DNA of 64,000 nucleotides, taken from a virus. Positions within the stretch are counted from its first letter, which is position 1. Each line of letters opens with the position of its first letter. A program made the position numbers and the translations under genes. Below the pieces are notes generated by a model. It was not told the origin of the DNA and searched no databases. It saw only the letters and a program-made list of their open reading frames with translations. The stretch lies in IMG/VR virus record IMGVR_UViG_3300035660_000001, positions 32,001 through 96,000 of that record; one strand, 5' to 3'. This document shows positions 3,904-26,304 of this stretch, in pieces.

Positions 3904-3909
3904 TTTACG

Positions 3910-7546: not shown

Positions 7547-7578
7547 CTTGATTTCGGTAAGTGGTTTTGTGGTAAGAT
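7547..7578 (+). promoter_or_regulatory. Candidate extended -10 promoter
   Basis: TG-G-TAAGAT with TTGATT upstream, in an AT-rich intergenic gap. Confidence 0.3.
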
Positions 7579-7684
7579 AGTTAAGTAACTCGATTCACCA
7601 ACCGTCGATTCTAGCGCGAAAGTCCATGATGGATTATTATCCTGGGCTGTCTTTTTGTGAGAAAAACGGAGGTCGGAGTCATCG

Positions 7685-10916: not shown

Positions 10917-12362
10917 ATGGAACAGTTTCTGACAGCCTGGAAGACTCCCGAGGCCCAGGCCCTGATGAGCAAGTGGAACCGTCTCACGAAGTCGATCGTG
11001 GAGCCGTACCGGAAGTTCTGCGTTTCCCGGCTCCTCGAGAACGAGATGGACCACCTGATCTATCTGGCCAGCGCCGGGAGCACGACAACCGGAGATGCGG
11101 GCTACTACACCAAGCACGTGTTCCCGGTGGTTCGGAGGGTCTGGCCGTTCCTGATCTCCAACGAGATCGTTTCGGTCCAGCCTATGAACGCCCCTGTGGG
11201 TGCCGTGTCCTACTTCAAGGTCAAGTATGGGACCGAGAAGGGACAGACCACGAAGGGCACGGAGATGATCGCGAACTTCGACATGTATTACTCGTCGGAG
11301 ACCGTGAGCGGAGAGGCAGTCGGAGCGTCGACCGCAGGGTCGGGGGCCGACAAGCTTTTCACCGGATCGCTGAACTTCTCCCCCGTGAAGAAGGCGACGG
11401 ATGCCGGGGCCGCCGCTCCGATCATCACCGTCGTGACCAACGAGACGTCCCCCCGGACGATCAAGTATACCGACCCGAACGGGTCGGGTACGCTGATCGG
11501 TGACACCGCCGGGGCATCGGGGTCGATCAATTACACCAACGGCTACCTCTTCGTGACGATCCCGACCCTGGAATCGCTGAAGGTGGGCGTGGTGACCGCG
11601 ACCTACGAATACAACAGCGAGCTCAACACGGCTGTCCCGGAAGTGGACGTGGCCGTGGAGATCGCCGAGGTTCGTGCGCGGAGCCGCAAGCTCAAGGCCG
11701 TCTGGTCGACCGAGTCCGCAGAAGACCTGCGGGCGTTGCACGGCATCGATGTGGAGTCGGAGCTCGTGGCCGGGGTTTCCAGCCAGATCGGCTTGGAAGT
11801 CGACCGCGAGATCATCAACGACATCTACACCCACGTCGATGCGGTCGTGAAGTATGCCTGGGATCGCACCGTGCCGTCCGGCATCTCCGACATCGACCAC
11901 ATCCGTTCGATCCTAACCGTCCTCTCGACGGCGTCGAATGCGGTCCACAAGCGGACGCTCCGTTCGCCCGCGAACTGGATCGTGACCTCGCCCGACGTGG
12001 CGGCTCTGTTCGATCAGTTCGCGACGCACCAGCTGTTCCGGCCAGCGGTGGGTTCCGTTCCCGAGACCGGGGTGCCCGTGACCCCGCCTCGGAGACCCGG
12101 GATCTACTTCGCCGGGACTCTGCAGTCCAAGTGGGCGGTCTACGTCGACCCCTACTTCACCTCGACGAAGATCCTGATGGGCCTGAAGGGGGATTACTGG
12201 ATGGATGCGGGCTACGTTTACGCCCCGTATATCCCGATCCAGATGACCCCGACGTTCATGGACCCGTCGGACTTCGGGTTGAAGAAGGGCCTGCGTACCC
12301 GGTACGCCACGAAGCTGATCTACACCGAGTACTACGCCCTGGTGACCGTCCTCAACCTGTAA
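10917..12362 (+). CDS. Major capsid protein (T4 gp23-like)
   Basis: RLLENE, VSVQPM, ARSRKLKA.WS.E...DL...HGID.E, VYVDPY, AGYVYAPYIP, G...RY motifs. Confidence 0.97.
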   Translation: MEQFLTAWKTPEAQALMSKWNRLTKSIVEPYRKFCVSRLLENEMDHLIYLASAGSTTTGDAGYYTKHVFPVVRRVWPFLISNEIVSVQPMNAPVGAVSYFKVKYGTEKGQTTKGTEMIANFDMYYSSETVSGEAVGASTAGSGADKLFTGSLNFSPVKKATDAGAAAPIITVVTNETSPRTIKYTDPNGSGTLIGDTAGASGSINYTNGYLFVTIPTLESLKVGVVTATYEYNSELNTAVPEVDVAVEIAEVRARSRKLKAVWSTESAEDLRALHGIDVESELVAGVSSQIGLEVDREIINDIYTHVDAVVKYAWDRTVPSGISDIDHIRSILTVLSTASNAVHKRTLRSPANWIVTSPDVAALFDQFATHQLFRPAVGSVPETGVPVTPPRRPGIYFAGTLQSKWAVYVDPYFTSTKILMGLKGDYWMDAGYVYAPYIPIQMTPTFMDPSDFGLKKGLRTRYATKLIYTEYYALVTVLNL

Positions 12363-12533: not shown

Positions 12534-12941
12534 ATGAGTAAGGTTCTGATGAATGCGATATCGGAACTCGAGGGTTTTCTGAACGCCAGACCGCCCGTGA
12601 CGTCCCAGCGGGGATCGGGATTCGATCAGGAAATGTCGGATCTCGTCGCGAAGCTCGCCACAGAGATGGCGATCAAAATAGAAGCCGAGAAGGGCGACTT
12701 CTATACGATGCTTATGGAGGCGATCGGGGAGCGGTGGGAAGGAGCCATGAAGAAGGCCGGGCTCAGAGACGATGTCGATATCCTGGCGATCACGGAGAAC
12801 ATAGTCGATTGGCAGGCCGAGCATACTCAGGGAGGCATGGAGGCCGCGCTCTATGGTGTCCTCGACCGGCTCATCTCGGCTTGCAAGGCTACCGCACAGA
12901 ATCCCGTCTCGATGGCGAAGCGGGCGGGCGTCACTTTATAA
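12534..12941 (+). CDS. Leader-bearing putative internal protein
   Basis: AGGAGG then MSKVLMNAISELEGFLN|AR. Confidence 0.65.
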   Translation: MSKVLMNAISELEGFLNARPPVTSQRGSGFDQEMSDLVAKLATEMAIKIEAEKGDFYTMLMEAIGERWEGAMKKAGLRDDVDILAITENIVDWQAEHTQGGMEAALYGVLDRLISACKATAQNPVSMAKRAGVTL

Positions 12942-12950
12942 GGAGGCTCT

Positions 12951-13379
12951 ATGGACTATCTTTTGAACGTCATTAACTCCTGCCTCGTATCCCTGTCCGG
13001 AGAACCCAAGAGGGTCCGTCTCTCGAGTGCCACAAGCCTCAAGGACGTCTACGGGATGGGGCGGGGCGATCTCAAGCGGACGAAGGAGGTCTACGAGTGG
13101 CGCGACTCGACGTGGTATTCCATCGATGAAGCCGCTCGGCGTTTTGAACAAGCTGGGATCACAGAATACAACGAGTTCACCCCGAACAGCATCCGAGCCC
13201 TGAAGCGGATCGACCCACAGCTCGAGGTCCAGCTTGCCCGGGAGGGATCGCCGTGCGTTTACGTCAGGAAAGATGGGGCAGACCTCGAAGCGATTTCCGA
13301 GATGATCGAGGACTCCAAGAAGGTCGGGGCCGACGAGGTTCACGTTCGGAACAACGAGATCCGCCTCTGGTGGGACTGA
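12951..13379 (+). CDS. Leader-bearing putative internal protein
   Basis: MDYLLNVINSCLVSLS; RLSS|AT. Confidence 0.65.
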   Translation: MDYLLNVINSCLVSLSGEPKRVRLSSATSLKDVYGMGRGDLKRTKEVYEWRDSTWYSIDEAARRFEQAGITEYNEFTPNSIRALKRIDPQLEVQLAREGSPCVYVRKDGADLEAISEMIEDSKKVGADEVHVRNNEIRLWWD

Positions 13380-13380
13380 C

Positions 13381-13743
13381 ATGAAGAACCTTCTCGAGTC
13401 TCTGCGGAGCCTTGCGAGATCCCTTACGTCGGGGAAGCAGATTCTAACTTCCGGCCTCGAGAAGCACCTTACGGAGATTCTCGATGACGCCGGAATCGAA
13501 CGGAGCAGGTACGACTTCGATTGGTCGGATATCCCTGGGATAACGGTTTCCACCCCGAAGGATGCCGACGCCCTCATGAAGGTTATCGATGCCTCCAGGG
13601 AGATCGGGCCGACGAGGTGGAACCGGAGGAAAAAGAAAATTGAGCTGGGAACCCATGAGTCGCTCTTTAAGTCGACGACGGATGCCAAGACGATGACCTT
13701 CGACGAGTACGTGAAGAAGTTCAAGAACTTCGAGGTCGACTAA
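13381..13743 (+). CDS. Leader-bearing putative internal protein
   Basis: MKNLLESLRSLARSLTS|GK. Confidence 0.7.
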   Translation: MKNLLESLRSLARSLTSGKQILTSGLEKHLTEILDDAGIERSRYDFDWSDIPGITVSTPKDADALMKVIDASREIGPTRWNRRKKKIELGTHESLFKSTTDAKTMTFDEYVKKFKNFEVD

Positions 13744-14010
13744 GTGGACCTGCTTCTGTCCTCCGTTGATCGCCTGGGAAGGCTTCTAATCAACCAGGAG
13801 ATATCGCAGGCGATCGCCCAGCAGGTGCTTGAGGATATCGCCCCGGACTTCGACGTCGATCCGGAGCAGTTCCGGATGGGGCTTGCGGACGAGCTTGAAC
13901 ACTACGACGTCACCGGCGGGGATCTCGTGACCACGGGGCAGATCGCCCTGGCGCACCTCAAGGAGCATCCCGACTACTACACCAGGCTCAAGCAAGCGGG
14001 ACTGGATTGA
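13744..14010 (+). CDS. Leader plus DUF5661-like domain
   Basis: MDLLLSSVDRL leader; QFRMGL..ELEH...IALAHLKE.PDYYTRL. Confidence 0.7.
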   Translation: MDLLLSSVDRLGRLLINQEISQAIAQQVLEDIAPDFDVDPEQFRMGLADELEHYDVTGGDLVTTGQIALAHLKEHPDYYTRLKQAGLD

Positions 14011-14327
14011 ATTGTCTCCTCGTATGCACACGGAGGGTCTGTTCAGCGGTCGATCTGGCTCCGGCGAAGGCAGTCAAGGCCGTGGCCTTCGAGATAGACG
14101 GTCGGGTCTACGAGGGAAGGCCGGGAGAGACACACGCCCGGCTGTTAGCCCGGCTTCCCGCCAGCGTGGTGGATCGGTACTACGATCTGATGGAGGATCC
14201 CGATGAGGCGGGTTTCGTCGACGGGTTCGTCATGAAGAACGGGGAGTTCCTTACCCGAGGGGACGTGATGGTGAGAACGGGCAAGCCTGGGGAGTCAACC
14301 GCTCTCGGAGTGTCTCCCCGGCGATGA
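14007..14327 (+). CDS. Leader-bearing putative internal protein
   Basis: MNCLLVC... leader; GRVYEG..GETH...DGFV...GEFLTR domain. Confidence 0.6.
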   Translation: MNCLLVCTRRVCSAVDLAPAKAVKAVAFEIDGRVYEGRPGETHARLLARLPASVVDRYYDLMEDPDEAGFVDGFVMKNGEFLTRGDVMVRTGKPGESTALGVSPRR

Positions 14328-14791
14328 ACGGCCTCCTCCTGTTGGTCGGACAGATCGGGGATGAGCTCCGGTTTCAGGCCCGGACTGTGAAGCGTTCAGA
14401 AGACGAGCCGGACAAGAGGGTTGCTGGATGGCCCAATGCCGCCCGGGTCCCGTCGAGGGTGGAGTCCAAGAGCGAGTTTGAAGAAATCCTCGAGATGCTT
14501 CAGGAGCTCGGGAAGTCCGGGGAGTTCGAATTTACGTCACGCTATGGAGACCTGGACGATATCCCGAGGACGATAGAATCCCTGAAGCTTCAAGGCCGTG
14601 CGAATCCAGCGAGAGTCGACAAGACCGCCCAGGACATCATCCAGCAATACAAGGCCTATGGTTTCCCGACCGACTTCTATGGAATTCAGGACATGCTCCG
14701 CGACGCCGACTGGCCGGACGATGCGATCGTCCACGTGTGGGAGCGGGTGCGGGAGCTCGGCAAGAAACAGGGCATTCACTTTGTGGAGTGA
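14324..14791 (+). CDS. Leader-bearing putative internal protein
   Basis: MNGLLLLVGQIGDELRFQ|AR. Confidence 0.65.
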   Translation: MNGLLLLVGQIGDELRFQARTVKRSEDEPDKRVAGWPNAARVPSRVESKSEFEEILEMLQELGKSGEFEFTSRYGDLDDIPRTIESLKLQGRANPARVDKTAQDIIQQYKAYGFPTDFYGIQDMLRDADWPDDAIVHVWERVRELGKKQGIHFVE

Positions 14792-14797
14792 GGAATT

Positions 14798-15184
14798 ATG
14801 AAAGACCTGCTCGGTTTGGTCAATGCCGCAATGCCATCTCTGGCTCCGATGTCTCCGGCCTCCCCGACGAAGGACGTGCCGGACGACGAGTCCCGGAGGC
14901 GGATGGAGAAGAGGGACAATGAGAAGAAGGATGCCGTCCGGTCGGGGCATCTAACCTCGTCCTTCACTTATGCGAAACCGGAAAGGCATTATGATGTCGA
15001 AGATCTCCGAGGAAATACGTCCGGCTACATCGGCGGGGCGAACGTAGCCCGGAAGGCCTCGGACGATGAGCTTATCCTGATCGCCCAGCTCAAGGACGAG
15101 GCCGCAGGCTTCGCTAACCATGCGAAGGAGTTCTCGGATCGGGCCGAGTCGATCATGAGAGACATCGAAAGAAGGAAGGGATGA
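14798..15184 (+). CDS. Leader-bearing putative internal protein
   Basis: MKDLLGLVNAA; GHLTS|S. Confidence 0.6.
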   Translation: MKDLLGLVNAAMPSLAPMSPASPTKDVPDDESRRRMEKRDNEKKDAVRSGHLTSSFTYAKPERHYDVEDLRGNTSGYIGGANVARKASDDELILIAQLKDEAAGFANHAKEFSDRAESIMRDIERRKG

Positions 15185-15411
15185 AAAACCTACTGAGTGC
15201 AGTCGAAGCCCTGCAGTCCAAGGTGGACGAAGCTGATTTTTTAAGAAAGGCGCAGGATGCCTTCGACAATACCGAAGCGGCGGCGGGCGGGCTCATTGGC
15301 CTTCAGGACCATTTCAAGAGGGACAGTAGCGTGAAGAGGGAGCTGGAGAGGGACGTCGAAGAACTCGATCGGATCGCCAAGTTCATTACCAAAATCGCGG
15401 GGGTGAATTGA
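15181..15411 (+). CDS. Leader-bearing putative internal protein
   Basis: MKNLLSAVEALQSKV. Confidence 0.65.
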   Translation: MKNLLSAVEALQSKVDEADFLRKAQDAFDNTEAAAGGLIGLQDHFKRDSSVKRELERDVEELDRIAKFITKIAGVN

Positions 15412-15412
15412 G

Positions 15413-16291
15413 ATGGATAACTTGCTTCAAGCGGTCAAGAACGTAGCCTCCCAGGTGGGCCTGCAGTCTGCACGTGGTGGCGTAGACGATGACACCGCCC
15501 GGAGGTGGACGCATTCCTTCTACGCCCAGTTCGGCGGCATCACCTTCATAGTCATGAAGGACGAGAGCCCGTATGTGAAGATGGGCGATACCCTTACGGT
15601 CTCCACGGGCGGGGTTGTTCCGGAGGACATCACGGGGCCCAACAGCTACGTTTATCTTGAGCATGAGCTGGGGAGCGAAGAGCAGTGGGAGCAGTTTAAG
15701 ATCACGATCCCCGATCAGGAGAAATACTTCGCCCGCAAGACGGTCGGCAGGGATCAGTGGCAACTCCAATTCATAGCCGAGAACCTCAGTAAGGGAAAGT
15801 ATGTCATCGATGACGACCACCCCGACCGGATCAAACGGGAGTTCATCCAGTTTGTTGAGAGCATCGAAGAGCAGGACGACGATGACTTGGAGGACTCCCG
15901 GATCAGGCGTGGCCGGAGGCTGAACTCGGCCAGGGGTGACATTTGGCTGGACTCCGACGATGAGGTGAAGGCCCTCGGGAACTACGCTGAGGGATACGCC
16001 AAAGCCTTAACCGATCCGGAAATGGTCGATGCCATCAAGGATGCTTACGGCGAAGCCGTAGGCAAGCTTTCCGATGAGCTGATGCCTCCGTCGAAGGGTG
16101 ATATCGGATGGTCGGGTCTGGCCGACGTGTTCTACTATATCCTGAACCGTCAGACGGGAGGGGAGAATGGACAGCTCCGCAGGATCAAGGAGTTTCTCAA
16201 GGGTGAATTGGATGTCGCCAAGCAGATCGCCAAGAACCCGAGAAAAATGTTCGATGAAGCGGGCGGGATTATCAAGCCGAGGGGAGAATAG
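15413..16291 (+). CDS. Leader-bearing two-domain putative internal protein
   Basis: MDNLLQAVKNVASQVGLQS|AR; internal RRLNS|AR. Confidence 0.7.
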   Translation: MDNLLQAVKNVASQVGLQSARGGVDDDTARRWTHSFYAQFGGITFIVMKDESPYVKMGDTLTVSTGGVVPEDITGPNSYVYLEHELGSEEQWEQFKITIPDQEKYFARKTVGRDQWQLQFIAENLSKGKYVIDDDHPDRIKREFIQFVESIEEQDDDDLEDSRIRRGRRLNSARGDIWLDSDDEVKALGNYAEGYAKALTDPEMVDAIKDAYGEAVGKLSDELMPPSKGDIGWSGLADVFYYILNRQTGGENGQLRRIKEFLKGELDVAKQIAKNPRKMFDEAGGIIKPRGE

Positions 16292-16294
16292 GTC

Positions 16295-16645
16295 GTGAAT
16301 AAGGAATTCAACGAAGCCTTCGGACGGTTGGAGCAGATTCTCTTCCCCGGAGTAGCCGCAGAGAAGAAGGGCGAGTTTCCTGGGGTGGACGTTACCGATC
16401 CGGTAGCTTCCGCTGTAGCCCCCGTCGAGACCAAGCAGGTCGTCCAGTCTGCCGGGGAGCCCTTGTTCATGTGCCAGGAGTGCGGGAAGAAGTTCTACAC
16501 GACAGCTTCTGCCGAGCGGGCGACGAATAACGGTTGCCCGAAGTGCGGGGGTGTGGATATTGACACCTACGTCAAGAGCTCGAAAATCGGGCCGATGAAC
16601 GATCTGGTGGCGTCTCTGCGGTCAATCGAAAGGAGCCTCAGATGA
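16295..16645 (+). CDS. Zn-ribbon protein with a C-terminal leader-like tail
   Basis: CQECGK...CPKCG; ends MNDLVASLRSIERSLR. Confidence 0.65.
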   Translation: MNKEFNEAFGRLEQILFPGVAAEKKGEFPGVDVTDPVASAVAPVETKQVVQSAGEPLFMCQECGKKFYTTASAERATNNGCPKCGGVDIDTYVKSSKIGPMNDLVASLRSIERSLR

Positions 16646-16911
16646 GAACCTTACTGGAAGCTATGCAGGCCGTCGAGACGGGACTAGTCTCCGCCCGGTC
16701 AACGGACACGTTGCGGGGAGACTTCGCCGTCCGGGCCGAGAAGTGCAAGGGCATCCTCGTCCAGGTCGACAAGCTCCTCGACCAGATTGAAAAGTATGAC
16801 CCCTACGGGGACATGATCGAGAACTTCGCCGATCCCGACGCGGACAGTAAGCGCGACCGGGTAACGACGAGGTTGATCGGCCAGATCAACGGAGACCTGG
16901 GACGTAAATGA
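16642..16911 (+). CDS. Leader-bearing putative internal protein
   Basis: MRTLLEAMQAVETGLVS|AR. Confidence 0.7.
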   Translation: MRTLLEAMQAVETGLVSARSTDTLRGDFAVRAEKCKGILVQVDKLLDQIEKYDPYGDMIENFADPDADSKRDRVTTRLIGQINGDLGRK

Positions 16912-17264
16912 GAACCCTGCTGGAAGCAACCCGGGCGGTCGAGCGGGGTCTGGTGCTCTCGGCATTTCCGAGGCCCTCGGACTCGGAGCTACAGCGGAAG
17001 TGCGAGGAATATGCGAAGATGGCCGAACAGTTTCCAGAGTTTATGGACGAGGCTTACTTCGGGGAAGCCATCTTTAAATCCGAGCTGGGCAAGGATCACG
17101 ATGTGGCGATGGAGGTAGCGGAGATCTTCTGGTGGGCTCTCAGGGAAACGCCTCTAGGGAAGGGGCTCATGAGGAGAATAAACAGCCTTTCCAAGGAGAT
17201 GGCATCCTTCTGGCGGGATCTACAATCGAACGTCGCTAGCTGGCGGTCCAAGACAGGTCAATAA
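16908..17264 (+). CDS. Leader-bearing putative internal protein
   Basis: MRTLLEATRAVERGLVLS|A. Confidence 0.7.
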   Translation: MRTLLEATRAVERGLVLSAFPRPSDSELQRKCEEYAKMAEQFPEFMDEAYFGEAIFKSELGKDHDVAMEVAEIFWWALRETPLGKGLMRRINSLSKEMASFWRDLQSNVASWRSKTGQ

Positions 17265-17272
17265 GGAGAATC

Positions 17273-18223
17273 ATGAATACCCTTTTGGAATCTTTGGACT
17301 CCCTCCGCAAGATGCTCGTCCTCTCGAGGTTTGAGGACGACCTGGAACCCGAAGAGGAAGATGTCTTCATCCAGGACACCCGGGGTGGCGGGACGGAAGC
17401 GAACCAGGGCGGGAAGACGATCGCTACCTTGGATGACGACTGGGACAAGTTCTACAAGGACATCCTGGGCTGGATGAATAAGAGCAAGTTCTGGCCGACC
17501 GTCTGGGTGGTCAGCGATCACGGGAACACGGAGGTCGACACCGACTTCATCACCTACTCGAGGAAGCACGGGGGGATGAGGGCCGCCGGGGTCGAAGGCA
17601 TCTACTCGAAGGTCGGGCCCACCGGCGACCTCGAGAGCCCTTCCTACCGGGAGGTCGACCATGAGTTCATGCGGATCGAAACCATGAGCATCCCAGCTCT
17701 CCGGACCCGTATCACGAAGATAGGGAAGCCGGAGAAGATGTATGCCTTTATCTACGCCCTCGAGAAGCAGGTCGACATCTACGGGGCAAATAGCCCGCAG
17801 GGTCAGGACTACAAAGAGCTGGCGGACTCAGCCCGGAACTACCTGAAGATCTGGGGCTACGACACGAGGGGCCGGGTCATGTCCGAGAAGCTCACCAACG
17901 CCGGGGAGGACCCGACGGCTACTCACAAGGAAGAGCTCTACACCCTGGCCGGGTTGATGACGGGGGCCGTCATGCCAGGCGATCTCCGGCAGGATATCCT
18001 CTCTGTGATCAAGGAGAAGGTGTGGCCGGAGATCGATGAGAAGGCCCGGATGATCAACAAGAGTAACCCGAAGGATTTGGCCCGGATAGCCGGAGACGCA
18101 TTCGAAGAGACGATGGGAGGAAGAACGTCGGCTTCCGGGGAGCTCGGCAACGCCCTTCGGTCCATCCAGGATGCCGTCGATGAAGTGTGGCATGCTCTCG
18201 CAAGAGAATGGGGGAAGAAGTGA
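17273..18223 (+). CDS. Leader-bearing multi-domain putative internal protein
   Basis: MNTLLESLDSLRKMLVLS|R; internal MRA|AG and LTN|AG. Confidence 0.7.
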   Translation: MNTLLESLDSLRKMLVLSRFEDDLEPEEEDVFIQDTRGGGTEANQGGKTIATLDDDWDKFYKDILGWMNKSKFWPTVWVVSDHGNTEVDTDFITYSRKHGGMRAAGVEGIYSKVGPTGDLESPSYREVDHEFMRIETMSIPALRTRITKIGKPEKMYAFIYALEKQVDIYGANSPQGQDYKELADSARNYLKIWGYDTRGRVMSEKLTNAGEDPTATHKEELYTLAGLMTGAVMPGDLRQDILSVIKEKVWPEIDEKARMINKSNPKDLARIAGDAFEETMGGRTSASGELGNALRSIQDAVDEVWHALAREWGKK

Positions 18224-18576
18224 TGGAGAATTTCAAAGAATCGGCTGACTGGCTGGGCGTTCTCTGCGGGGAGAGCGACGGGACGGAGATCGGGGACAAG
18301 CTGATGTCCGTCCGGGGTGGTGAGCCTGCGGCCTTTATGGACGACCAGGACCAGGAGAAGCTCGGAGAGACAATCAAGTGGGGCAAGGCCTCCGAGCAGT
18401 TCTTGGCGGAGCTGGCGAGCAACATCCGGTATGCCATAGCGTCCTACGATCCCAAGCACAAGTCGGAGATGGAGGATGTCGTGAGGCTTCTGCAGAAGGC
18501 CGCGACCGCTGGGGAGGAAATGTCGCATCAGGTCAAGAAGGCCGTGGAAATTCTCGAGAACAGGGACTGGGCTTAG
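18223..18576 (+). CDS. Protein with type-2 (LCGE) leader
   Basis: TGATG overlap; MENFKESADWLGVLCGE...KLMS|VR. Confidence 0.6.
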   Translation: MENFKESADWLGVLCGESDGTEIGDKLMSVRGGEPAAFMDDQDQEKLGETIKWGKASEQFLAELASNIRYAIASYDPKHKSEMEDVVRLLQKAATAGEEMSHQVKKAVEILENRDWA

Positions 18577-18584
18577 GAGGGATC

Positions 18585-19083
18585 ATGAGAGATCAGGTGA
18601 TCAAAGCCCTGCAGGCGCTCGAGGCCACGATGAAGAAGGAGAGCAACATCATCGAATGGGTTTCCACTACCCTGCACAATGATGAGGCGTCATCGGATTC
18701 CGAGATGGCAGACCATTTCAAGAAAGAAGGTAAGGTCTCCAACGAGACGGCCTGGGATTTTGTCAGGCTCCGACAGAAGGCACTGAAGGGCCGCGATGTC
18801 ACTTCCGAGATCGCACAGATCCTCGAGAGGGGGGGGTTGGCCGATGGGGAGCTCTCGAGAGGGGAAGCCGTTGGAGAGTGGTCTTAGGAACACGAAGGTT
18901 CTCATGAAGACCCTGATGGACGATCGGAGCAAGCCGAACCTGCAGTATGTGGAGGAGACCCTTTCAGACGGATCGAAGGCCTATAATATCATCGTCGGGG
19001 CTTTTGAATATGCCGCCAAAGACCGGGACGATGCGGATGCGGTCTACGAGGCGATCTACACCGCCGTGGGCGAGAAAGGATAG
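18585..19083 (+). pseudogene. Leader-bearing gene split by a G8 tract (18829-18836)
   Basis: Starts MRDQVIKALQALE; removing one G joins it to ...KPLES|GLRN...EETLSDGSKAYNI. Confidence 0.55.
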
Positions 19084-19084
19084 C

Positions 19085-19459
19085 ATGAGCCAAGAGAATA
19101 AAGCCGTTTTAATCCTTGCCGAGCTTTGCGGAGAACCGATCGCGTCCGCAGGGCCCCGGGTCTTGGGCTACAAAGGCGTGGATCCCGCCGTCCTTCAGAA
19201 GACTGCCCTTCAGATAGCGAACGGGGGCGTTCTGGGTGATTCCCGGAAGCTCTTCGAGTATGTGCTGAAGTTCGTCAAGGATGCGGTCGGCCATTCCGGG
19301 GATGCCAAAGCCACTGCCGAGATCAATGACGTGCTCTTCCAGTACCTGCGGGACAATTCCGACTGCAAAGAGGGCATGGGATTGATCACGAATAAATTGC
19401 AGGAGGTCGTCCGTGAGATCGCAGAGAGCGACGACCCATTCGGTTTAAAGGGGACGTGA
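19085..19459 (+). CDS. Protein with type-2 (LCGE) leader
   Basis: MSQENKAVLILAELCGEPIAS|AG. Confidence 0.65.
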   Translation: MSQENKAVLILAELCGEPIASAGPRVLGYKGVDPAVLQKTALQIANGGVLGDSRKLFEYVLKFVKDAVGHSGDAKATAEINDVLFQYLRDNSDCKEGMGLITNKLQEVVREIAESDDPFGLKGT

Positions 19460-20085
19460 GAGACTTGCTCGAAGCTGTTCGAACCCTATCCAGCGGGATC
19501 TTCCTGGGGCTCTATCTCGATCCCAACCGGGAGAAGGAGTTTCAGGACCTCGAGCCGTCTACGCAGTTTATGATGATGGAGCTCTTCCGAAGGGATCGGG
19601 TCTACGGGGACTACGATCGGAACGTGAAGCCGGACTTCCGGAGCCGCTTGTCGGACTACGGGATCCAATGCGAGGACGTCCTCTGGGTGAGCCCGAAGAT
19701 GAGCTGGAAGGATGAAGAGGGAGACAGCCCGGACTACTACTTCAGGCCCGAGCGCCTCGTTCTCAAGAACGCAGTGGTCAAGGACGTCAGGCTCTTTCTC
19801 AAGGAGGCCGGGGCGAATCCGAACGATCCAGAGGTCCAGAAAGCACTGAACGATCGTCGGTCTCCGGTGAGCATCTCATTCTCGACCCGGGGCTACGCCT
19901 GTGTTCCCCCGACGATCGGCGGGGCCGACCTGACGGAATTCATCCAGGGGGTCGTAGAGGAACTGCTCGGGACCCTGCAGGACGAGTACGGGGATATGAT
20001 TGCCAACAACGACGTGGCCGATATTCTGGTGGACGGGGATACCTGGAAACAATACGCCCGGCAGGTGGGGTTGAAGGCCGCATGA
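19456..20085 (+). CDS. Leader-bearing putative internal protein
   Basis: MRDLLEAVRTLSS|G. Confidence 0.7.
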   Translation: MRDLLEAVRTLSSGIFLGLYLDPNREKEFQDLEPSTQFMMMELFRRDRVYGDYDRNVKPDFRSRLSDYGIQCEDVLWVSPKMSWKDEEGDSPDYYFRPERLVLKNAVVKDVRLFLKEAGANPNDPEVQKALNDRRSPVSISFSTRGYACVPPTIGGADLTEFIQGVVEELLGTLQDEYGDMIANNDVADILVDGDTWKQYARQVGLKAA

Positions 20086-20264
20086 AGGAATTATTGAACG
20101 CCATTACCGATCTCTCGCAGAATCTCAAGCTCGTGAACGTCTCCCCTCCGGGCTGGGGCGGGACCGTCCGGGCGATGAAGAAGCATAAGGACATCGACAA
20201 TCCCTTCGCCCTCGGCTGGTGGATGAAGAACCGGGGCGACAAACCGCACCACAAGGAGGACTGA
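20082..20264 (+). CDS. Leader plus small SPPGW...DNPFALGWWM domain
   Basis: MKELLNAITDLSQNLKLVN|VSPPGW. Confidence 0.65.
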   Translation: MKELLNAITDLSQNLKLVNVSPPGWGGTVRAMKKHKDIDNPFALGWWMKNRGDKPHHKED

Positions 20265-20265
20265 C

Positions 20266-20550
20266 ATGAAAAAGGAAACTCGAGCCGTTCAGCTTCTGTC
20301 AGAACTTTGTGGCGAGGGTCAACCCTTGTCGAGCGTCCGGATGGGCAAGGTCGAGTTCGAAGCCTCGCCGGACAACAAGACCGTCGACATTATTTCCCGA
20401 TTTATCAAGGAACTCACCCAATACGGCTGGGTCATTGTAGATGGGGTCGTGCAGGATGCCGGAACGACGACCCTCGGTCATGATGGCACGAAGCGCGCCG
20501 TGCTGGGGATCACCATCAGCATTGTCAGGCCGAGCGATACCACGATTTAA
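20266..20550 (+). CDS. Protein with type-2 (LCGE) leader
   Basis: MKKETRAVQLLSELCGEGQPLSS|VR. Confidence 0.65.
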   Translation: MKKETRAVQLLSELCGEGQPLSSVRMGKVEFEASPDNKTVDIISRFIKELTQYGWVIVDGVVQDAGTTTLGHDGTKRAVLGITISIVRPSDTTI

Positions 20551-20564
20551 AGGAGGATAGTGAC

Positions 20565-21005
20565 ATGAATAGAGAAACTCGTGCCGTCCAGCTTCTGTCC
20601 TCGATGTGCGGGGAGCCGCTCCTTGACGCCCGGGGGACGTCGGTCTGGGATGTCAAGAACAAGCTCTCCACGAGGGACTTCCTGAAGGCTGGCCGTTACA
20701 TCTCGGGAGGGTTCGGATTTTGGGCCCATTCTGCTCTCGCTACGAACCCCGAGCTGGCCGATGCGTGGATCGAAGCCCTCCGGCAGAAGGGCTACTCCGA
20801 TCTCGAGATCGTTCTCTACGGGGACTTCAAGGACGGAAGGATGATCGGGGACGAGCTGGAACCCGACGACATGACCAAAGAGAAGGCTATCCAGATCATC
20901 AAGAAGCGGTCGATCAGCCCGAAGGAAGTTCGTCGGATCGCAGAGGGCGAGGGAACTTACCAGAACGCTCTCGAGGATCCCGACTTCACGAAGTTCTTCG
21001 TGTAG
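20565..21005 (+). CDS. Protein with type-2 (MCGE) leader
   Basis: MNRETRAVQLLSSMCGEPLLD|AR. Confidence 0.7.
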   Translation: MNRETRAVQLLSSMCGEPLLDARGTSVWDVKNKLSTRDFLKAGRYISGGFGFWAHSALATNPELADAWIEALRQKGYSDLEIVLYGDFKDGRMIGDELEPDDMTKEKAIQIIKKRSISPKEVRRIAEGEGTYQNALEDPDFTKFFV

Positions 21006-21008
21006 ACC

Positions 21009-21440
21009 ATGAGAGCCTTACTCGAATCCATCCGATCCCTTGCCGGGCTCTTCTCGGTAGGACAGGGTTCGGCTGGGAGAGTCAGGACGCCGGACGACCT
21101 CGGGGAGTCCCCGTTCTACGCCCGGCTGAAGGATACGCCACAGCGGGACAAGAAGCTGGCGACCGATCTCATGAAGATCGACGAGGACATCTGGCGGAGC
21201 AAGGGTTGGGATGACGCCTCGGGTCCCTGGGGGAACTGGGATGACTACAAAGAGAATGTCGAGGTTGCCGTCCGGAGGATCGGGATCCGACCGGGCACTC
21301 TCTCGGAGCGGGTGTGGGAGATCCTCGAGAACGAGAACTACCATTCGATCAACGGGGCCCTCGATGACCTCGCGATGTATAAGGTCAAGCACTACACTGA
21401 CGCCCAGATCAAGAAGCTGTTTCGGAGCAAATCCCAATGA
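21009..21440 (+). CDS. Leader-bearing putative internal protein
   Basis: MRALLESIRSLAGLFS|VG. Confidence 0.7.
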   Translation: MRALLESIRSLAGLFSVGQGSAGRVRTPDDLGESPFYARLKDTPQRDKKLATDLMKIDEDIWRSKGWDDASGPWGNWDDYKENVEVAVRRIGIRPGTLSERVWEILENENYHSINGALDDLAMYKVKHYTDAQIKKLFRSKSQ

Positions 21441-21449
21441 GGGGGTGCT

Positions 21450-21725
21450 ATGGACATAACACCGGAGGAAGCAAGGGTCGTTCAGAAGGTCGAGCATTAC
21501 CTTCGGGGTATCGACTATCACAACATCGTGGGGATGCTCTCCGGAGGGATTTCCAACGATCTCAGGTTCGCCGGGGTTGATCAGAAGGTGAGCGCGAAAT
21601 TATCCCATCGGTTGGTAGCACTTATAGACGTGCAGTACCTGGAAGGGACCCGGCAGAAGCTCCATGATCTGTCGAATAACCAGGCCCTGCTTCTGGACCT
21701 CGTTCGGGCCTCAATGACGGCATAG
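21450..21725 (+). CDS. Hypothetical protein (no leader)
   Basis: Fits the operon packing; GAGG RBS. Confidence 0.55.
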   Translation: MDITPEEARVVQKVEHYLRGIDYHNIVGMLSGGISNDLRFAGVDQKVSAKLSHRLVALIDVQYLEGTRQKLHDLSNNQALLLDLVRASMTA

Positions 21726-21733
21726 GAGGACTT

Positions 21734-22051
21734 ATGAAGGAACTTCTCTTGGCGGTAACCTCGATTGATCAGATGGTTGGAGGGGCAAGGTTTCTCGGGT
21801 ATCCCGTGAAGGAGAAGCCGGTCCAGAGTGCCGTGGACGTTAACTCTATCTTGCGGTGGCTCGCCTCTCCCGACTCCGTGAAGATATGGATCGCCTCGGG
21901 GATCGGCTATCATCTCGAGGGCGTGGATGAGCTCCGTGGAAAGTCGAGACGGATCGGGGATCGGGTTGCAGAGAAGATTCCCCGTTCGGACATCCAGGCG
22001 ATTGCCGATGCCGTGAAGGACATACTACCCGATGTGATAGAAAGGGTGTAG
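21734..22051 (+). CDS. Leader-bearing putative internal protein
   Basis: MKELLLAVTSIDQMVGG|AR; PVQS|AV. Confidence 0.65.
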   Translation: MKELLLAVTSIDQMVGGARFLGYPVKEKPVQSAVDVNSILRWLASPDSVKIWIASGIGYHLEGVDELRGKSRRIGDRVAEKIPRSDIQAIADAVKDILPDVIERV

Positions 22052-22054
22052 AGG

Positions 22055-22672
22055 ATGAGATACTGGAAGAAGAATCCGAAATACGGTCAGATCTCCTGCG
22101 GGGGAAACATGTTCAGCTCCGGCTCGGTCATCGAAGGTGACCACTGGGCGATCTACGCCGCTCCCCCGGACGACCGTTTAATAGAGTGCGACGCTGGCGG
22201 TAATCCCTTATCGGCACCACCTCCACTTCCTGTGCTACATGCGCCGGTGTCCGACGCGCCGGTGCCTGGTCCAGCCGAAGGGATAATCTCCTCTGTGGCG
22301 TCGCCTGCCTCTCAGCCAGCGCCTCCGGAACCGGCTCCCGCCATGTCGCCTGCGCCCGAACCTCCGCAGGAAGCTGTTTTAGGAGTCGGGGATGGTCTTC
22401 AGTCGGAGACGACTGAGGCTGTGGAAGTACCTCTCCACACGATCGCCCCGGAGGCGCTCAAGGCTGAGGGCGAAAAGCCGCCCAAGGCGGGTCAACCCGA
22501 GCGGGAGGGGTCTGTGGCCGGATCGGAGGCCAAAGCCCCACCTGAAGCCCCTGGCGAAGCCCAGGGGGGCAAGAAGGAGGCATCCAAGCCCTCCAAACCC
22601 GGGTCGAAGCCCGTCCAGGTAGCATCCAAGACCCCCGGCAAGAAGGGCGGGCGGGGAACGGCGTATGTCTAA
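22055..22672 (+). CDS. Pro/Ala/Glu/Lys-rich low-complexity protein
   Basis: Small N-terminal domain plus long PAPE-rich tail; precedes neck gene. Confidence 0.55.
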   Translation: MRYWKKNPKYGQISCGGNMFSSGSVIEGDHWAIYAAPPDDRLIECDAGGNPLSAPPPLPVLHAPVSDAPVPGPAEGIISSVASPASQPAPPEPAPAMSPAPEPPQEAVLGVGDGLQSETTEAVEVPLHTIAPEALKAEGEKPPKAGQPEREGSVAGSEAKAPPEAPGEAQGGKKEASKPSKPGSKPVQVASKTPGKKGGRGTAYV

Positions 22673-22681
22673 CCTCCGCAT

Positions 22682-23407
22682 GTGCCTGCGGACATGACCG
22701 AAGCCGAACTCAAAGCGGAAGTTTTCACCAACCTCGGGTTCGGGACGAAAGTCCAGGTCGAGCTCGAGGACGATCACTGGGCGGCCGCTTTGCAGAACAG
22801 CCTGCGCTGGTTTAACTCGAGACTGGGGTCGGAGGTCCTGGCTCGGGAGATCCCGGTTACAAGCTGGGAGTATGAAGAGCATGTCCTGCCGAGCGGGACG
22901 ATCGGGGTGAGCGAAGTATACGCCGGGCTGGATTACCTCGGTCAATTCTCGTTTGATATGCCCGGGTTTGTCCTCTGGCAGGTGGGGCACGACTACCGGA
23001 GGTTGGGGCATCGGTTTTCCGCTCTCGTTCTCTACCTTCAGCACTCGGAGACGCTCGGACGGATTGCCGGAGGCTACGGATGGGAGTATGAGCCTGGGAC
23101 CAGGATTCTGCGGACGTGGAAGCTCCCGCAGACGATCAGCTCTCTTTTCTACGATGCCTGGGTCGTAGCCAACAAGATCGAGGATGTTCAGGCCGTGGCG
23201 GATATCGATCTCATCGTTCGGAGGGTGACGGCACGATGTAAGCAGACGCTTGGAAGGATCAGGGGGAAGTATAAGCAGTATCCCGGACCCGGCGGTCCGG
23301 TCGAGATGGACGCCGACAAGCTGTTGGATGAAGCCGCTGAGGAGATCAAAGAGACGGATGAGTATATCCTGAGTAGGGCTTCGCAAATCCCGTTCGTGAC
23401 GGGTTAA
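22682..23407 (+). CDS. Neck/head-tail adaptor (T4 gp13-like)
   Basis: LG...VQVELEDD; A.CKQTLGRIRGKY..YPGPGG.V.MD...L..EA..E; PFVTG C-terminus. Confidence 0.75.
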   Translation: MPADMTEAELKAEVFTNLGFGTKVQVELEDDHWAAALQNSLRWFNSRLGSEVLAREIPVTSWEYEEHVLPSGTIGVSEVYAGLDYLGQFSFDMPGFVLWQVGHDYRRLGHRFSALVLYLQHSETLGRIAGGYGWEYEPGTRILRTWKLPQTISSLFYDAWVVANKIEDVQAVADIDLIVRRVTARCKQTLGRIRGKYKQYPGPGGPVEMDADKLLDEAAEEIKETDEYILSRASQIPFVTG

Positions 23408-23434
23408 CGTTTAACGCTAGAGGAGGAATCTAAA

Positions 23435-23779
23435 ATGACGTTCGCAGTGACGCAGGGTCAGATCAAAGAGCATTACGCCCCGGGCGGCGCGTATCAGGCC
23501 GTCCACACCGCCGAGGAGACGTTGGACTTCAGGCTCGGCGACCTCGTTCCGGCTGTCAAGGAGTACCTGGCGCCGGACGACTTGTCCGCCGTGGCAAACC
23601 TGGCCGCTCTCCTGGTGGCGATCGACGCCACCGTGACGGGCGCTCTCAAGACGTACCTGGACGCCGTCATCGCCGCTCAGATGCCGATCATGTTCTCGGG
23701 GCGGGACGGCTTCGCCGGGACGATGTCCTTCGTGATCGCCATTCTGATCATGTCGGGCTACTACCTCAACATCACCTAA
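23435..23779 (+). CDS. Probable virion structural protein
   Basis: Strong GAGGAGG RBS; codon usage similar to major capsid and sheath genes. Confidence 0.5.
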   Translation: MTFAVTQGQIKEHYAPGGAYQAVHTAEETLDFRLGDLVPAVKEYLAPDDLSAVANLAALLVAIDATVTGALKTYLDAVIAAQMPIMFSGRDGFAGTMSFVIAILIMSGYYLNIT

Positions 23780-23783
23780 ACTG

Positions 23784-24003
23784 TTTCGGGGCGGGGGGTC
23801 TTCTTCATGGTTTCCATTGCTCCGGCTCTCACCTCCCTTCGAGAGCTCCTTGAAACCCCGGCCAAGCTCCCCGCCCCCGCAGTTAGGTTCGTCGACAAGG
23901 CTGATGAGGTAGGGCACAAGCCAGCAGATGAAGATCTGCCGGGAATTGGTTTCGGGGTTAGAGCTCGAAGGGGAGGTGGAAGCGGTGTTGGAGATAGAGG
24001 AGG
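23784..24003 (+). ncRNA. Candidate large structured RNA or 5' leader
   Basis: Long imperfect inverted repeat 23800-23871/23941-24003 covering the downstream RBS; alternative pairing 23788-23796/23869-23877. Confidence 0.4.
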
Positions 24004-24016
24004 TGGGGTCGAGAGC

Positions 24017-24607
24017 ATGAAGGAGTTAATGGCGGACATCCTGGGCGTTCTAGACACGATCAAACAGCGTCCCCATGCCATGAGGGTGACGGACGATGAG
24101 AAGCTCGAGAACCTCGTGACGAGGGATGCCTTCGGGAATCGCCTGCGTGGTCAGGATCAGTATATGGTCCGGCTTATCGGGCGGGGGCTGTGGCTTACCC
24201 CGAAGGGGCCGGGTAACTACACGGAGGATCCCGAGGACGCCTATCTCATGACTGGCTTCGAGGCCGAGCGATACATTCGGGGGAATTCCAACCTGGAAGC
24301 GATCTCCTACGAATCCTACGAGAAGCGGGGCTTGCGGTCGGATCGTCTGGATCCGAGGGATTCAGAAGGAACGCCTTTGAGGGAGGGTGATTACATCATT
24401 CGGAAGGCAGGCTCTTTCGGTCCAAGCAAGAGGACGGGGTTTGGTCTCCGGGCCGACAATGTTTATGCGGTGAAGAGCCTTTACGAAATGTCTGGGATAA
24501 CCTACGTTAATGCGTGGCCCATTACTCCTGGCCGGACGAAGACCGTTAACCCGGCTGTGATGTTCACCAAGATCACCGATGATGAAGTCCGGGCTTTGGA
24601 GAAATAA
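24017..24607 (+). CDS. Leader-bearing protein
   Basis: GAGGAGG then MKELMADILGVLDTIKQR; internal GLRS|DR. Confidence 0.6.
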   Translation: MKELMADILGVLDTIKQRPHAMRVTDDEKLENLVTRDAFGNRLRGQDQYMVRLIGRGLWLTPKGPGNYTEDPEDAYLMTGFEAERYIRGNSNLEAISYESYEKRGLRSDRLDPRDSEGTPLREGDYIIRKAGSFGPSKRTGFGLRADNVYAVKSLYEMSGITYVNAWPITPGRTKTVNPAVMFTKITDDEVRALEK

Positions 24608-25198
24608 GTGGAGCCCGAAGGACTTACCCTCCACGACGTCGGGACGGACAGCAAGGGCTGGTTCGTCGTCCTGCAGGATAAGGAGGGCGGGCTTGCCAAA
24701 TACTGGTTTCCAAGCCAGCGGTATACGAAGGCGTTCCTCGACGACTTCCGGTTCGATAAGAAGAAGGGAGTCGAGACCCTCGAGAAGCGTTCGACTGGCA
24801 CCGAGACGATCGGGGATAATCTCAAGGCCGAGGATTCGTTCAGCGTCCGTTTGATAGAGCCCGACAAGGGCGATCCGTTCTTTGAAGTTCAGCGGGGCGA
24901 CAAGAAGCGATACCGCTACTACGTTCCGAAGAAGGACATGATAGAGATTGCCCGGGAGCTTTCCGACCAGACGTCCACGGAGCAGTTTAATCGTGTTCTC
25001 GGTATGTTGAACGATGTCGCCTATCTCGTGCAGGTGGAGAAGGCCACGGGGACGGGAGACTGGGAGACCGTCCGGCAGGACAAGGAGCAGACTTACGATG
25101 ACCCCGTCCACCTGAAGCCGATCGACAGCCCCTACTTTACGGTAACCGTTTCGCATCATCTCGAGCACATGCTGGGACTGCTTTCTCATGGCCGATAG
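24608..25198 (+). CDS. Hypothetical protein
   Basis: Abuts neighbours on both sides. Confidence 0.6.
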   Translation: MEPEGLTLHDVGTDSKGWFVVLQDKEGGLAKYWFPSQRYTKAFLDDFRFDKKKGVETLEKRSTGTETIGDNLKAEDSFSVRLIEPDKGDPFFEVQRGDKKRYRYYVPKKDMIEIARELSDQTSTEQFNRVLGMLNDVAYLVQVEKATGTGDWETVRQDKEQTYDDPVHLKPIDSPYFTVTVSHHLEHMLGLLSHGR

Positions 25199-25670
25199 AT
25201 TCTTTGAAAATCCCCGTGACCGGAGAATGTTCGACGGCGTCGCACAGGAGGTTCCGGCCCTCAGCGGGTTCCACATCAGTTACTACTCCCTCAATCGTGC
25301 GGCCTCGATTCAGGACCCGCTGTATCAGGAGCCCACGACGGAGTCTGATTTCGTCTTTCTCGGACCTTACGACATCATCGGGAATCTCGAAGTCCCGACC
25401 TGGACGTGGGAGGAGAACGAGGTCGGAGGGATCGGGGAGATCGATGCGCTCGCCCACCTGCCCCGGAAGAGCATTGAGGACAATCACTGGCCTCTCCCGA
25501 AGCGGGGAGATATCCTGTTAGTTTGGAATACGCCACAGCCTTTATTTACGAAGTATGATATCGTGAAGGTCACGCCGACGGAGTTCTACTGGGGGACGGG
25601 TGACCACATGTTCTGGACTTGTGAACTTAAACGGCATGCCGATGCGCCAGGGGAGCAGAAAATACCATGA
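25188..25670 (+). CDS. Head closure/neck protein (T4 gp14-like)
   Basis: YYSL....DPLYQEP...F.GP, PKRGDI motifs; position in neck module. Confidence 0.6.
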   Translation: MADRFFENPRDRRMFDGVAQEVPALSGFHISYYSLNRAASIQDPLYQEPTTESDFVFLGPYDIIGNLEVPTWTWEENEVGGIGEIDALAHLPRKSIEDNHWPLPKRGDILLVWNTPQPLFTKYDIVKVTPTEFYWGTGDHMFWTCELKRHADAPGEQKIP

Positions 25671-26002
25671 GCTTAAAAGTTCTGTTAAATGAAGTGCAGG
25701 CGTTGGAGGCGGCGATCGTCTCCGGAGCGAAGACGCCGCTCAAGCAGTGGAAGCGAGTTCCTTACCGGAGGGTGCCCGTGACGTCTGGCAAGGTAGTATC
25801 CCCGTTCAGCAGGGACGCCCGCAGGGCTACCAAGAGGGTCGTGAAGTCCGATCTGGGCCTCACCATGCGCTCGAAGTCCCGCAAGGACAAAGAGCACAGG
25901 CTTCACCGGAAGGCCGTGGAGGGCGGACACACCCTGGCCGGACAGGTGAAGGGCCTCATGGACATTTTCAACTCGGTTGATCTCAAGGTGAGGGCGACAT
26001 GA
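25667..26002 (+). CDS. Leader-bearing basic protein
   Basis: MSLKVLLNEVQALEAAIVS|GAK; K/R-rich body. Confidence 0.6.
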   Translation: MSLKVLLNEVQALEAAIVSGAKTPLKQWKRVPYRRVPVTSGKVVSPFSRDARRATKRVVKSDLGLTMRSKSRKDKEHRLHRKAVEGGHTLAGQVKGLMDIFNSVDLKVRAT

Positions 26003-26304
26003 ACGATCTGCTTAAGTCTGTCGCATTGACAGAGGAGACCTTGAAGTCCGCCATCTCTCCCGGGGAAGCCGGGCTCAGGAGTGGGGATCCCGAGAAGCAA
26101 CAGGCCGAGATTGCAGAGAACGTCTCGAAGCTCGTCGGGGTCGTCGGGGAGATGAAGAAGCTCGCCAACGATCTCTATAACGAACAGGTGAAGGGGGATG
26201 GGGATACCAGGCGGATCGGGCGGCTCGCAAATAATTTCAAAGACGCCGTCCGGAGAGCCAGCGTTATGATCGTCGCCCTTACCGATATCACCGATCAGTG
26301 GTAG
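25999..26304 (+). CDS. Leader-bearing protein
   Basis: MNDLLKSVALTEETLKS|AI; GLRS|GD. Confidence 0.6.
   Translation: MNDLLKSVALTEETLKSAISPGEAGLRSGDPEKQQAEIAENVSKLVGVVGEMKKLANDLYNEQVKGDGDTRRIGRLANNFKDAVRRASVMIVALTDITDQW

Follow-up and report, generated by a model that had tools for sequence, protein, structure and literature searches.

Behind the capsid gene of an uncultured relative of phage T4, about 25 small proteins with unrelated bodies begin with much the same short helix, and the question raised by this locus is what such a leader is for. The locus lies in a stretch of 64,000 nucleotides (nt), referred to below as the window, which comprises bases 32001-96000 of a complete virus record (IMGVR_UViG_3300035660_000001; 160,139 bp, with direct terminal repeats); its genes are on the + strand throughout and have a GC content of ~0.75 at third codon positions (GC3). 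A preliminary description of the window had noticed the leader and proposed that the proteins bearing it are packaged into the virion and injected. It is suggested here that the shared N-terminal helix is, with somewhat better than an even chance, a cleavable, lineage-specific capsid-targeting propeptide, the functional counterpart of the capsid-targeting sequence (CTS) of phage T4, so that comparison of the sequences would lend the packaged-and-injected reading partial support.

A shared N-terminal helix on unrelated proteins

The gene starts of the whole 160-kb genome were scored with the expression ^M..L[LVM]..[VILMT]..[LVIATC], which matched 16 of the 29 starts in the interval 12.5-26.3 kb but only 2 of the 176 elsewhere (Fisher p=3.6e-14). 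When residues 2-30 of the proteins in this interval were shuffled, 0.09 matches were left on average and 2 at most, and a six-frame scan of the window returned 15 matches on the + strand and 1 on the - strand. The claim that the leader is commoner than at random N-termini is upheld by these counts, as is the claim that it also heads the genes at 3201 and 3445, which are the sole matches outside the array and lie a short way upstream of the portal gene. In a leave-one-out position-specific scoring matrix (PSSM), scores of 7.8-21.6 bits are reached by 12 of the 13 examples originally listed, whereas no start outside the head module exceeds 5.1 bits; the thirteenth, 24017, falls away, being an internal methionine (residue 71) of the gene 23807-24607 with a score of -1.4, and is probably no gene start.

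The consensus first proposed, M-x-x-L-L-x-[AS]-[VIL]-x-x-[LVI], is confirmed as a pattern but proves too short: conservation runs to about residue 18, as M-[KRDN]-x-L-L-x-[AS]-[VIL]-x-[SA]-[LV]-x-x-x-[LVI]-x-[SL]-[AG]. Positions 4, 5, 8, 11 and 15 are hydrophobic, and the residues at 17-18 are small. On average the leaders have a helical hydrophobic moment of 0.445 and other N-termini one of 0.247. With the variants counted, about 25-27 genes carry a leader, which upholds the figure first given; ~21 of them have this type-1 form and 4-6 a type-2 form that keeps A7, V8 and L11, lacks L-L and ends in L-C-G-E (for example M-K-K-E-T-R-A-V-Q-L-L-S-E-L-C-G-E). Type-2 leaders occur in 18223, 19085, 20266 and 20565, with a loose likeness in 16295 and 21450, and variant leaders with one or two extra N-terminal residues in 12534, 18585 and 25667. 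Three genes, 18585, 18904 and 19085, are absent from simple lists of open reading frames and were found by a GC3 frame plot; the first and last of these have leaders. The leader is not present in the genes 22055-25670 nor, as had been stated, in the tail and enzyme genes.

Among 5.8 billion proteins, the capsid protein has one sister at 91% identity and a next match at <=49%. This sister phage (G001) holds a syntenic array, and a leader profile trained without it found 15 matches in it, none of them outside the stretch from the capsid to the neck genes. When the two phages are compared, amino-acid identity is 0.864 for leaders and 0.883 for bodies, and the ratio of nonsynonymous to synonymous substitution (dN/dS) is 0.20 and 0.24 respectively (287 and 2074 codons); these low ratios indicate that the array genes are real and under purifying selection. 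The leader is kept as a pattern and not as a fixed sequence.

A shared gene start could also be a signal in DNA or RNA, such as a translation-initiation region, a promoter or a recombination site, to which the peptide is incidental, and in at least one deletion between the sister phages recombination did take place between two leader-coding stretches. However, two results stand against this: first, over leader codons 2-16 the pairwise identity at codon positions 1/2/3 is 0.34/0.53/0.29, as against 0.30/0.28/0.34 in control codons. Second, Leu4 is spelled by all six leucine codons across the leaders, and the 30 nt upstream of the leader genes hold a weak ribosome-binding site and are otherwise unconserved. 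Given that identity is raised at the second codon position and not at the third, and that all six leucine codons are in use, the leader is selected as a peptide, and together with the upstream analysis this effectively excludes an explanation at the level of nucleic acid.

The bodies behind the leader are unrelated, as the preliminary description had it: an all-against-all BLASTP comparison from residue 23 to the end gave a best E of 0.056, no pair being better than E=0.05, and body lengths run from 60 to 316 amino acids (aa). Pfam and PHROG scans of 33 proteins returned only DUF5661, a zinc ribbon and one head-tail adaptor match, and 17273-18223 has no homologue beyond its own cluster among the 5.8 billion proteins. 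In 15413-16291, residues ~24-165 match leaderless proteins of 114-1202 aa, the homologues beginning at query residues 13-30 and the free-standing relatives of this domain starting directly at the domain. An AlphaFold2 model of the same protein has a helix at residues 2-20 (low confidence), a linker, and then a confident domain at 26-150; a fold search of the model against the PDB gave nothing at E<=0.001, and weak, partial SH3-like matches were set aside. Given the leaderless homologues of 15413, the DUF5661 domain in 13744 and the helix standing apart in the model, the addition of a tag to independent proteins is favoured.

It might instead be argued that the array is one old tandem-duplicated family whose bodies have diverged past recognition, the helix being the most constrained element and having no addressing function. 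The tandem arrangement is consistent with this, as are the near-identical leaders of the adjacent pairs 16642/16908 and 20266/20565, in both of which the similarity stops abruptly at about residue 17, and of a third adjacent pair, 3201/3445. Nevertheless, such a common descent is decidedly unlikely, given the spread of body lengths and the absence of BLASTP similarity at E<0.05, the membership of the 15413 and 13744 bodies in families that occur elsewhere without a leader, and the equal pace at which leader and body evolve between the sisters. With equal rates, differential decay alone does not account for the abrupt boundary.

The head module and the ends of the leaders

The array adjoins a head-assembly set of the gp20/gp21 (S77)/gp23 kind, each member of which scores over its curated cut-off: a T4-type (gp20) portal at 5872-7518 (PF07230, Portal_T4, E=1.7e-70), a prohead protease-scaffold of 507 aa at 9337-10860 (PF03420, E=1.9e-16) and a gp23-type major capsid protein at 10917-12362 (PF07068, E=5.7e-68). 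In the protease-scaffold, residues 1-165 are Peptidase_S77 (gp21-type) and the remaining ~340 aa a Glu/Lys/Ala-rich, coiled-coil, scaffold-like domain, a fusion kept in 66 homologues, and this protein is presumed to be both the docking partner and the processing enzyme of the leaders. The array junctions have a median gap of 2 nt, with overlap at 11 of 34 and a gap of <=12 nt at 29 of 34, so that array, capsid and neck genes form a single, closely coupled unit; a scan of 9-28.8 kb for sigma-70 promoters and terminators gave the same counts as shuffled sequence.

The ends of the leaders resemble the predicted maturation site of the capsid protein, L-A-S/A-G at residues 50-54 (a slash marks the predicted cut). 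In the N-terminal alignment of capsid proteins, the last conserved site before the mature core is hydrophobic-x-Glu in 18 of 18 relatives, including Y-L-T-E, G-L-E-E and K-L-H-E, whereas the window phage has Y-L-A-S/A-G and its sister Y-L-A-N/A-G; the flanks are unambiguous, with H-L-K-Y-L-T-E in relatives set against H-L-I-Y-L-A-S in the window phage. In T4, leaders and gp23 are cut after Glu in L/I-x-E (PMC9026906), the gp23 site in the T4 record being F-L-T-E65/A-E-I-G-G, and by analogy the aligned site would be the true cut. At the junction of protease and scaffold, Glu is found in 30 of 31 relatives, 28 of which have a hydrophobic P3, and the window phage has I-F-N. The leaders end in L-V-S/A-R (16642), L-Q-S/A-R (15413), L-T-S/G-K (13381), I-V-S/G-A (25667), L-K-S/A-I (25999) and F-L-N/A-R (12534), and hydrophobic-x-[SN]-[AG] starting at residues 8-22 occurs in 9 of 21 leaders compared with 12 of 164 other N-termini (p=6.9e-5). 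The T4-type L/I-x-E has no consistent position in the leaders, with Glu at position 6 in 6 of 20 and at position 12 in 5 of 20. Given that the leader ends match the phage's own capsid site, processing by the head protease is argued for, and this match is the strongest argument, albeit an indirect one, that the protease may see the leaders and hence that the proteins would be inside the prohead.

The protease domain (aa 43-172) of the window phage and its sister departs from 31 homologues at twelve positions where these are 80-100% conserved: T43N, E73C, R86E, A118S, G142T, Q146N, F156A, A158S, A165W, Y166P, P167E and E172N. These are candidates for an altered substrate specificity. R86E, near the catalytic histidine, was rejected as the cause of such a change, given that the L004 group of relatives has the same substitution and keeps Glu at its capsid site.

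If the leader is a capsid-targeting propeptide, the tagged proteins would be made late, alongside the head proteins, and the amphipathic helix would dock by its hydrophobic face (L4, L5, V8, L11 and L15) on the assembling prohead core, probably by binding either the coiled-coil scaffold that is joined to the S77 protease or the shell's inner face. Closure of the gp23-type shell would thereby enclose about 25 unrelated proteins; the prohead protease would cut the end of each leader between hydrophobic-x-Ser/Asn and Ala/Gly, near residue 17-19, and the freed bodies would stay in the head, packed together with the DNA, and would probably pass into the next host. Docking, cleavage and packaging are what we infer for the tagged proteins; their ejection and a role in anti-defence or takeover is a further step that may well be wrong, although it is a serious possibility. 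More tentative again, and on the whole rather unlikely, is a scenario in which the P1 preference of the protease changed or broadened from Glu to Ser/Asn, the capsid propeptide, the protease/scaffold junction and ~20 leaders followed, and the leaders came to serve as recombination handles for cassette swaps, so that the phage would own a quickly evolving arsenal of ~25 proteins that are packaged and enter the host along with the DNA. Co-folding of the leader (22-sequence alignment) with the full protease-scaffold (33-sequence alignment) gave no answer, at a score of 0.00, in both runs, which were made without controls, and speaks neither for nor against binding.

Given that the helix is amphipathic, with a heptad-like hydrophobic pattern, it could also be a peptide of more general use, serving docking or oligomerisation at some hub that is not the prohead, such as a host target, the inner membrane or a phage chaperone, in which case the proteins would act unpackaged in the infected cell. 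The lack of a conserved Glu cut site and the mostly acidic bodies are consistent with such a hub, as is a functional-looking copy of the leader at a C-terminus. The inner membrane is also the place where T4-type proheads are assembled. However, action at another hub is improbable, though less so than descent from a single duplicated family, for two reasons: first, all occurrences of the tag fall within the late head module, where translational coupling links it to the genes for head and neck. Second, the motif at the end of the leader matches the predicted maturation site of the phage's own capsid protein.

The C-terminal copy belongs to the zinc-ribbon protein 16295-16645 (116 aa, with the loose type-2 N-terminus), which ends at 16595-16645 in a type-1 leader, M-N-D-L-V-A-S-L-R-S-I-E-R-S-L-R, as its last 16 residues (16595-16642). 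This copy runs into the leader gene that follows, overlapping its ribosome-binding site and its start, and 15 of the 16 residues of the copy are kept in the sister. Either a lost cassette has left the copy behind by fusion, or the copy works as a tag at the C-terminus.

Several observations weigh against the leader being a capsid-targeting propeptide. The C-terminal copy is compatible with a docking peptide and not with an N-terminal propeptide, the strict Ser/Asn motif is found in only 9 of the 21 leaders, and the type-2 leaders end in C-G-E. The conserved hydrophobic-x-Glu positions L-V-E19 and L-V-E433 of the protease-scaffold are still Glu in the window phage, so that no clean switch of specificity is demonstrated, and the new motif shows no enrichment in the scaffold domain. 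Most bodies are acidic, unlike the basic internal proteins of T4 (PMC9026906), and the leader has only a loose M-[KR]-T-hydrophobic-x-E likeness to the T4 CTS, the leader profile finding no match in the T4 (E<=10) and RB43 genomes. Furthermore, the leader is no better conserved than the bodies between the sister phages, and the array is missing from six relatives at 43-49% capsid-protein identity, which leaves the propeptide without deep phylogenetic support.

Array genes and their turnover

Two leader genes stand upstream of the portal, at 3201-3440 (79 aa, M-E-T-L-V-D-I-I-Q-S-V...) and 3445-3903 (152 aa, M-D-S-L-V-D-I-L-Q-S-T...). The array proper opens behind the capsid gene with 12534-12941 (135 aa, one extra residue), 12951-13379 (142 aa) and 13381-13743 (120 aa, M-K-N-L-L-E-S-L-R-S-L), followed by 13744-14010 (88 aa), which has a GTG start where the sister has ATG and a DUF5661 body (PF18905, E=8.7e-15, aa 38-84), by 14007-14327 (106 aa, TTG start), whose leader is weak, and by 14324-14791 (155 aa), of which only the first 77 aa are common to the sister. 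After 14798-15184 (128 aa) and 15181-15411 (76 aa) comes 15413-16291 (292 aa), where the modelled domain is followed by an acidic patch and a C-terminal region. Beyond the zinc-ribbon gene, 16642-16911 (89 aa, M-R-T-L-L-E-A-M-Q-A-V-E) and 16908-17264 (118 aa) have near-identical leaders and unrelated bodies, and 17273-18223 (316 aa) is the orphan. The next three leader genes are the type-2 gene 18223-18576 (117 aa, ...W-L-G-V-L-C-G-E) and two recovered from the GC3 frame plot and translation, 18585-18887 (100 aa, one extra residue, M-R-D-Q-V-I-K-A-L-Q-A-L) and the type-2 gene 19085-19459 (124 aa, M-S-Q-E-N-K-A-V-L-I-L-A-E-L-C-G-E). They are followed by 19456-20085 (209 aa, GTG start), 20082-20264 (60 aa), the type-2 pair 20266-20550 (94 aa) and 20565-21005 (146 aa), 21009-21440 (143 aa), the loose type-2 candidate 21450-21725 (91 aa), whose membership is weak, and 21734-22051 (105 aa). 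Two leader genes lie after the neck genes, 25667-26002 (111 aa, two extra residues), with a basic body of isoelectric point (pI) 11.6, and 25999-26304 (101 aa). Of the proteins encoded in the array region, only those of the neck-module genes 22682-23407 and 25188-25670 have counterparts in distant relatives, that of 22682 being annotated there as gp13-like.

The set of tagged genes is polymorphic between the related phages, with missing, extra and 38%-identical cassettes. Five cassettes are absent from the sister (3201, 3445, 13381, 20266 and 21734), and its allele of 16908 is the one at 38% identity. A sister-specific leader gene (L008:~3660-4000, ~113 aa, M-R-E-L-L-S-S-L-V-L-V-E-G-S-L...) has no counterpart in the window and adjoins a shortened orthologue of 14324-14791. 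The single type-2 leader of this part of the sister (L008:10586-10700) is composed of the 5' part of the 20266 leader and the 3' part of the 20565 leader (window 20220-20620), and this chimera indicates a deletion, or in reverse a duplication, by recombination between leader-coding DNA. Such a turnover of cassettes between sisters is accessory-like, and the leader-to-leader deletion shows how arsenals of this kind can reshuffle.

The sister orthologue of 20082-20264 (L008:9485-10627; G001:C1:142485-143627) holds a ~321-aa intein with an HNH endonuclease (PF14890, E=3.5e-9; PF13392, E=3.5e-6), the exteins of which match the intact 60-aa gene of the window; an intein is unusual in so small and accessory-looking a protein. 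The gene 23807-24607, which contains the methionine at 24017, encodes 266 aa, and its sister orthologue ends after ~175 aa, giving the window protein a C-terminal extension of ~90 aa; the supposed leader at 24017 lies inside the part common to both.

In the six relatives without the array (L004-L006 and L010-L012), the capsid gene is separated from the gp13-like neck gene by only 1-5 genes, and a hidden Markov model (HMM) of the leader gave a best real score of 5.1 bits there, as against 8.0 for the best reversed-sequence control. Given its absence from these six, the array is a lineage-specific expansion. In L012, at 43% capsid identity, the products of 14729-15631 and 16348-16626, both located between the capsid and gp13 genes, share an N-terminal stretch L-E-S-I-S-K-x-L, which recalls L-L-E-S-I-R-S-L; both are HMM-negative, may owe the likeness to chance and were not counted. 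The phage is also remote from cultured ones, the closest capsid protein among these being ~30% identical, and searches against 50,697 phage records gave no match, either for the head module at the nucleotide level or for a 24-aa leader by tblastn.

Between portal and protease, the window encodes a 288-aa acidic protein (7685-8551, pI 4.9), a candidate component of the prohead core that has no Pfam or PHROG match, and a 240-aa acidic protein of no family (8579-9301), a candidate core protein whose N-terminal motif, S-T-L-E-E-D-L-x-x-L-G-L, is clade-wide. Post-portal proteins of 90-1160 aa carry [ST]-[LMV]-x-E-D-[LF]-x-x-[ILM]-G-[LI] within their first ~35 residues, namely window 8579-9301, L004:5039-8521, L005:7127-7399, L006:6849-7571, L010:6579-8090, L011:6894-7352 and 7387-8151, and L012:6971-8266, the two genes of L011 having identical starts. 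This motif may be a second, clade-wide address or cleavage tag (L-x-E/D). Three distant relatives have inteins in the portal (L004:1172-4927, L005:4865-7000 and L011:1702-5865; Intein_splicing, with LAGLIDADG in L011), and the window portal has none.

Comparison with known systems

If the leader is indeed a capsid-targeting propeptide, the array would be a large untapped set of candidate early counter-defence or takeover proteins, and the leader itself another address tag, independent of that of T4, with which foreign proteins could be loaded into T4-type capsids. It would also constitute a natural experiment in which a protease and all of its substrates change their cleavage motif together.

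Clustered genes that place one conserved N-terminal leader on hypervariable downstream sequences are likewise found in systems for ribosomally synthesised and post-translationally modified peptides (RiPPs), e.g. prochlorosins, and the leader could be the recognition sequence of a modifying enzyme. The pattern of one conserved leader with many variable substrates is that of RiPPs, and the genome encodes, in the tail-fibre region, two proteins of suitable kind: a radical-SAM and methyltransferase fusion (44203-45672) and a GARS/ATP-grasp-type protein (37300-38625), the candidates being the radical-SAM/methyltransferase or ATP-grasp ligases. However, modification of this kind is very unlikely. 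These enzymes lie 11-18 kb off, and none stands beside the array; the radical-SAM protein has Radical_SAM and methyltransferase domains in Pfam and no SPASM domain. The relative L005, which lacks the array, has a similar ATP-grasp gene in its structural block too, adjoining gp13. Furthermore, the bodies of 60-316 aa are folded proteins and not core peptides, and their context, unlike that of RiPPs, is a virion head module.

The cargo-loading peptides of encapsulins resemble the leader in that a short peptide, at either terminus, sends unrelated cargo inside a shell of HK97 fold, and the C-terminal copy on 16295-16645 recalls them. This is an analogy of working and not of membership: encapsulins, unlike the window phage, lack a portal, a scaffold, a protease and DNA, they use extended peptides and not helical ones, and they usually take one to a few types of cargo.

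The giant phages related to phiKZ (phiKZ, 201phi2-1 and SPN3US) have many head-internal proteins whose N-terminal propeptides are removed by a gp21-related protease (PMC9026906, PMC7411985). These ejection and inner-body proteins are like the array in being many different proteins with N-terminal leaders in the presence of an S77-related prohead protease. Their propeptides, in contrast, are long, include no single short tag and are cut after Glu (S/A/G-x-E or A-x-E), and several of the proteins are paralogues, whereas the window phage is a 160-kb myovirus of gp23 type.

The closest parallel to the proposed propeptide is offered by T4, whose three internal proteins are the textbook case of head-carried, injected anti-restriction proteins, each blocking a different nuclease. 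The unrelated internal proteins of the T-even phages have only an N-terminal packaging leader in common and are injected inhibitors of type IV restriction (PMC3012670, PMC9026906, PMC12373910), three of which occur in T4, while for the T-evens as a group 'at least 10' are reported (PMC12373910). The system described here is like that of the T4 CTS in four respects: a head of gp20/gp21/gp23 type, a short N-terminal peptide on otherwise unrelated, dispensable-looking small proteins, a gene set that differs among related phages, and, in 9 of 21 leaders, a motif at the leader end that matches the predicted maturation site of the phage's own capsid protein. It differs in the tag, which is MKTYQEFIAE or MKTFKEFTST in T4 (NC_000866) and M-x-x-L-L-x-A-V-x-x-L-x-x-x-L in the window phage, a difference of address tag that had already been proposed and that agrees with the absence of a T4 match to the profile. 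It differs also in the length of the tag (~18 residues forming a clear amphipathic helix, compared with 10 in T4), in the predicted cut (Ser/Asn where T4 has Glu), in the layout (a contiguous array inside the head/neck block, compared with scattered loci) and in the bodies, which are mostly acidic; the system of the window phage is a prediction from sequence. In summary, the kind of system is established, given the T-even internal proteins in which only the packaging leader is shared (PMC3012670, PMC9026906, PMC12373910); what is new is the presence of ~25 such genes in one genome, as against 3 in T4, their contiguity in the head/neck block, a different and longer helical tag, and, at the predicted cut, an apparent change from Glu to Ser/Asn that runs parallel to the one in the capsid protein.

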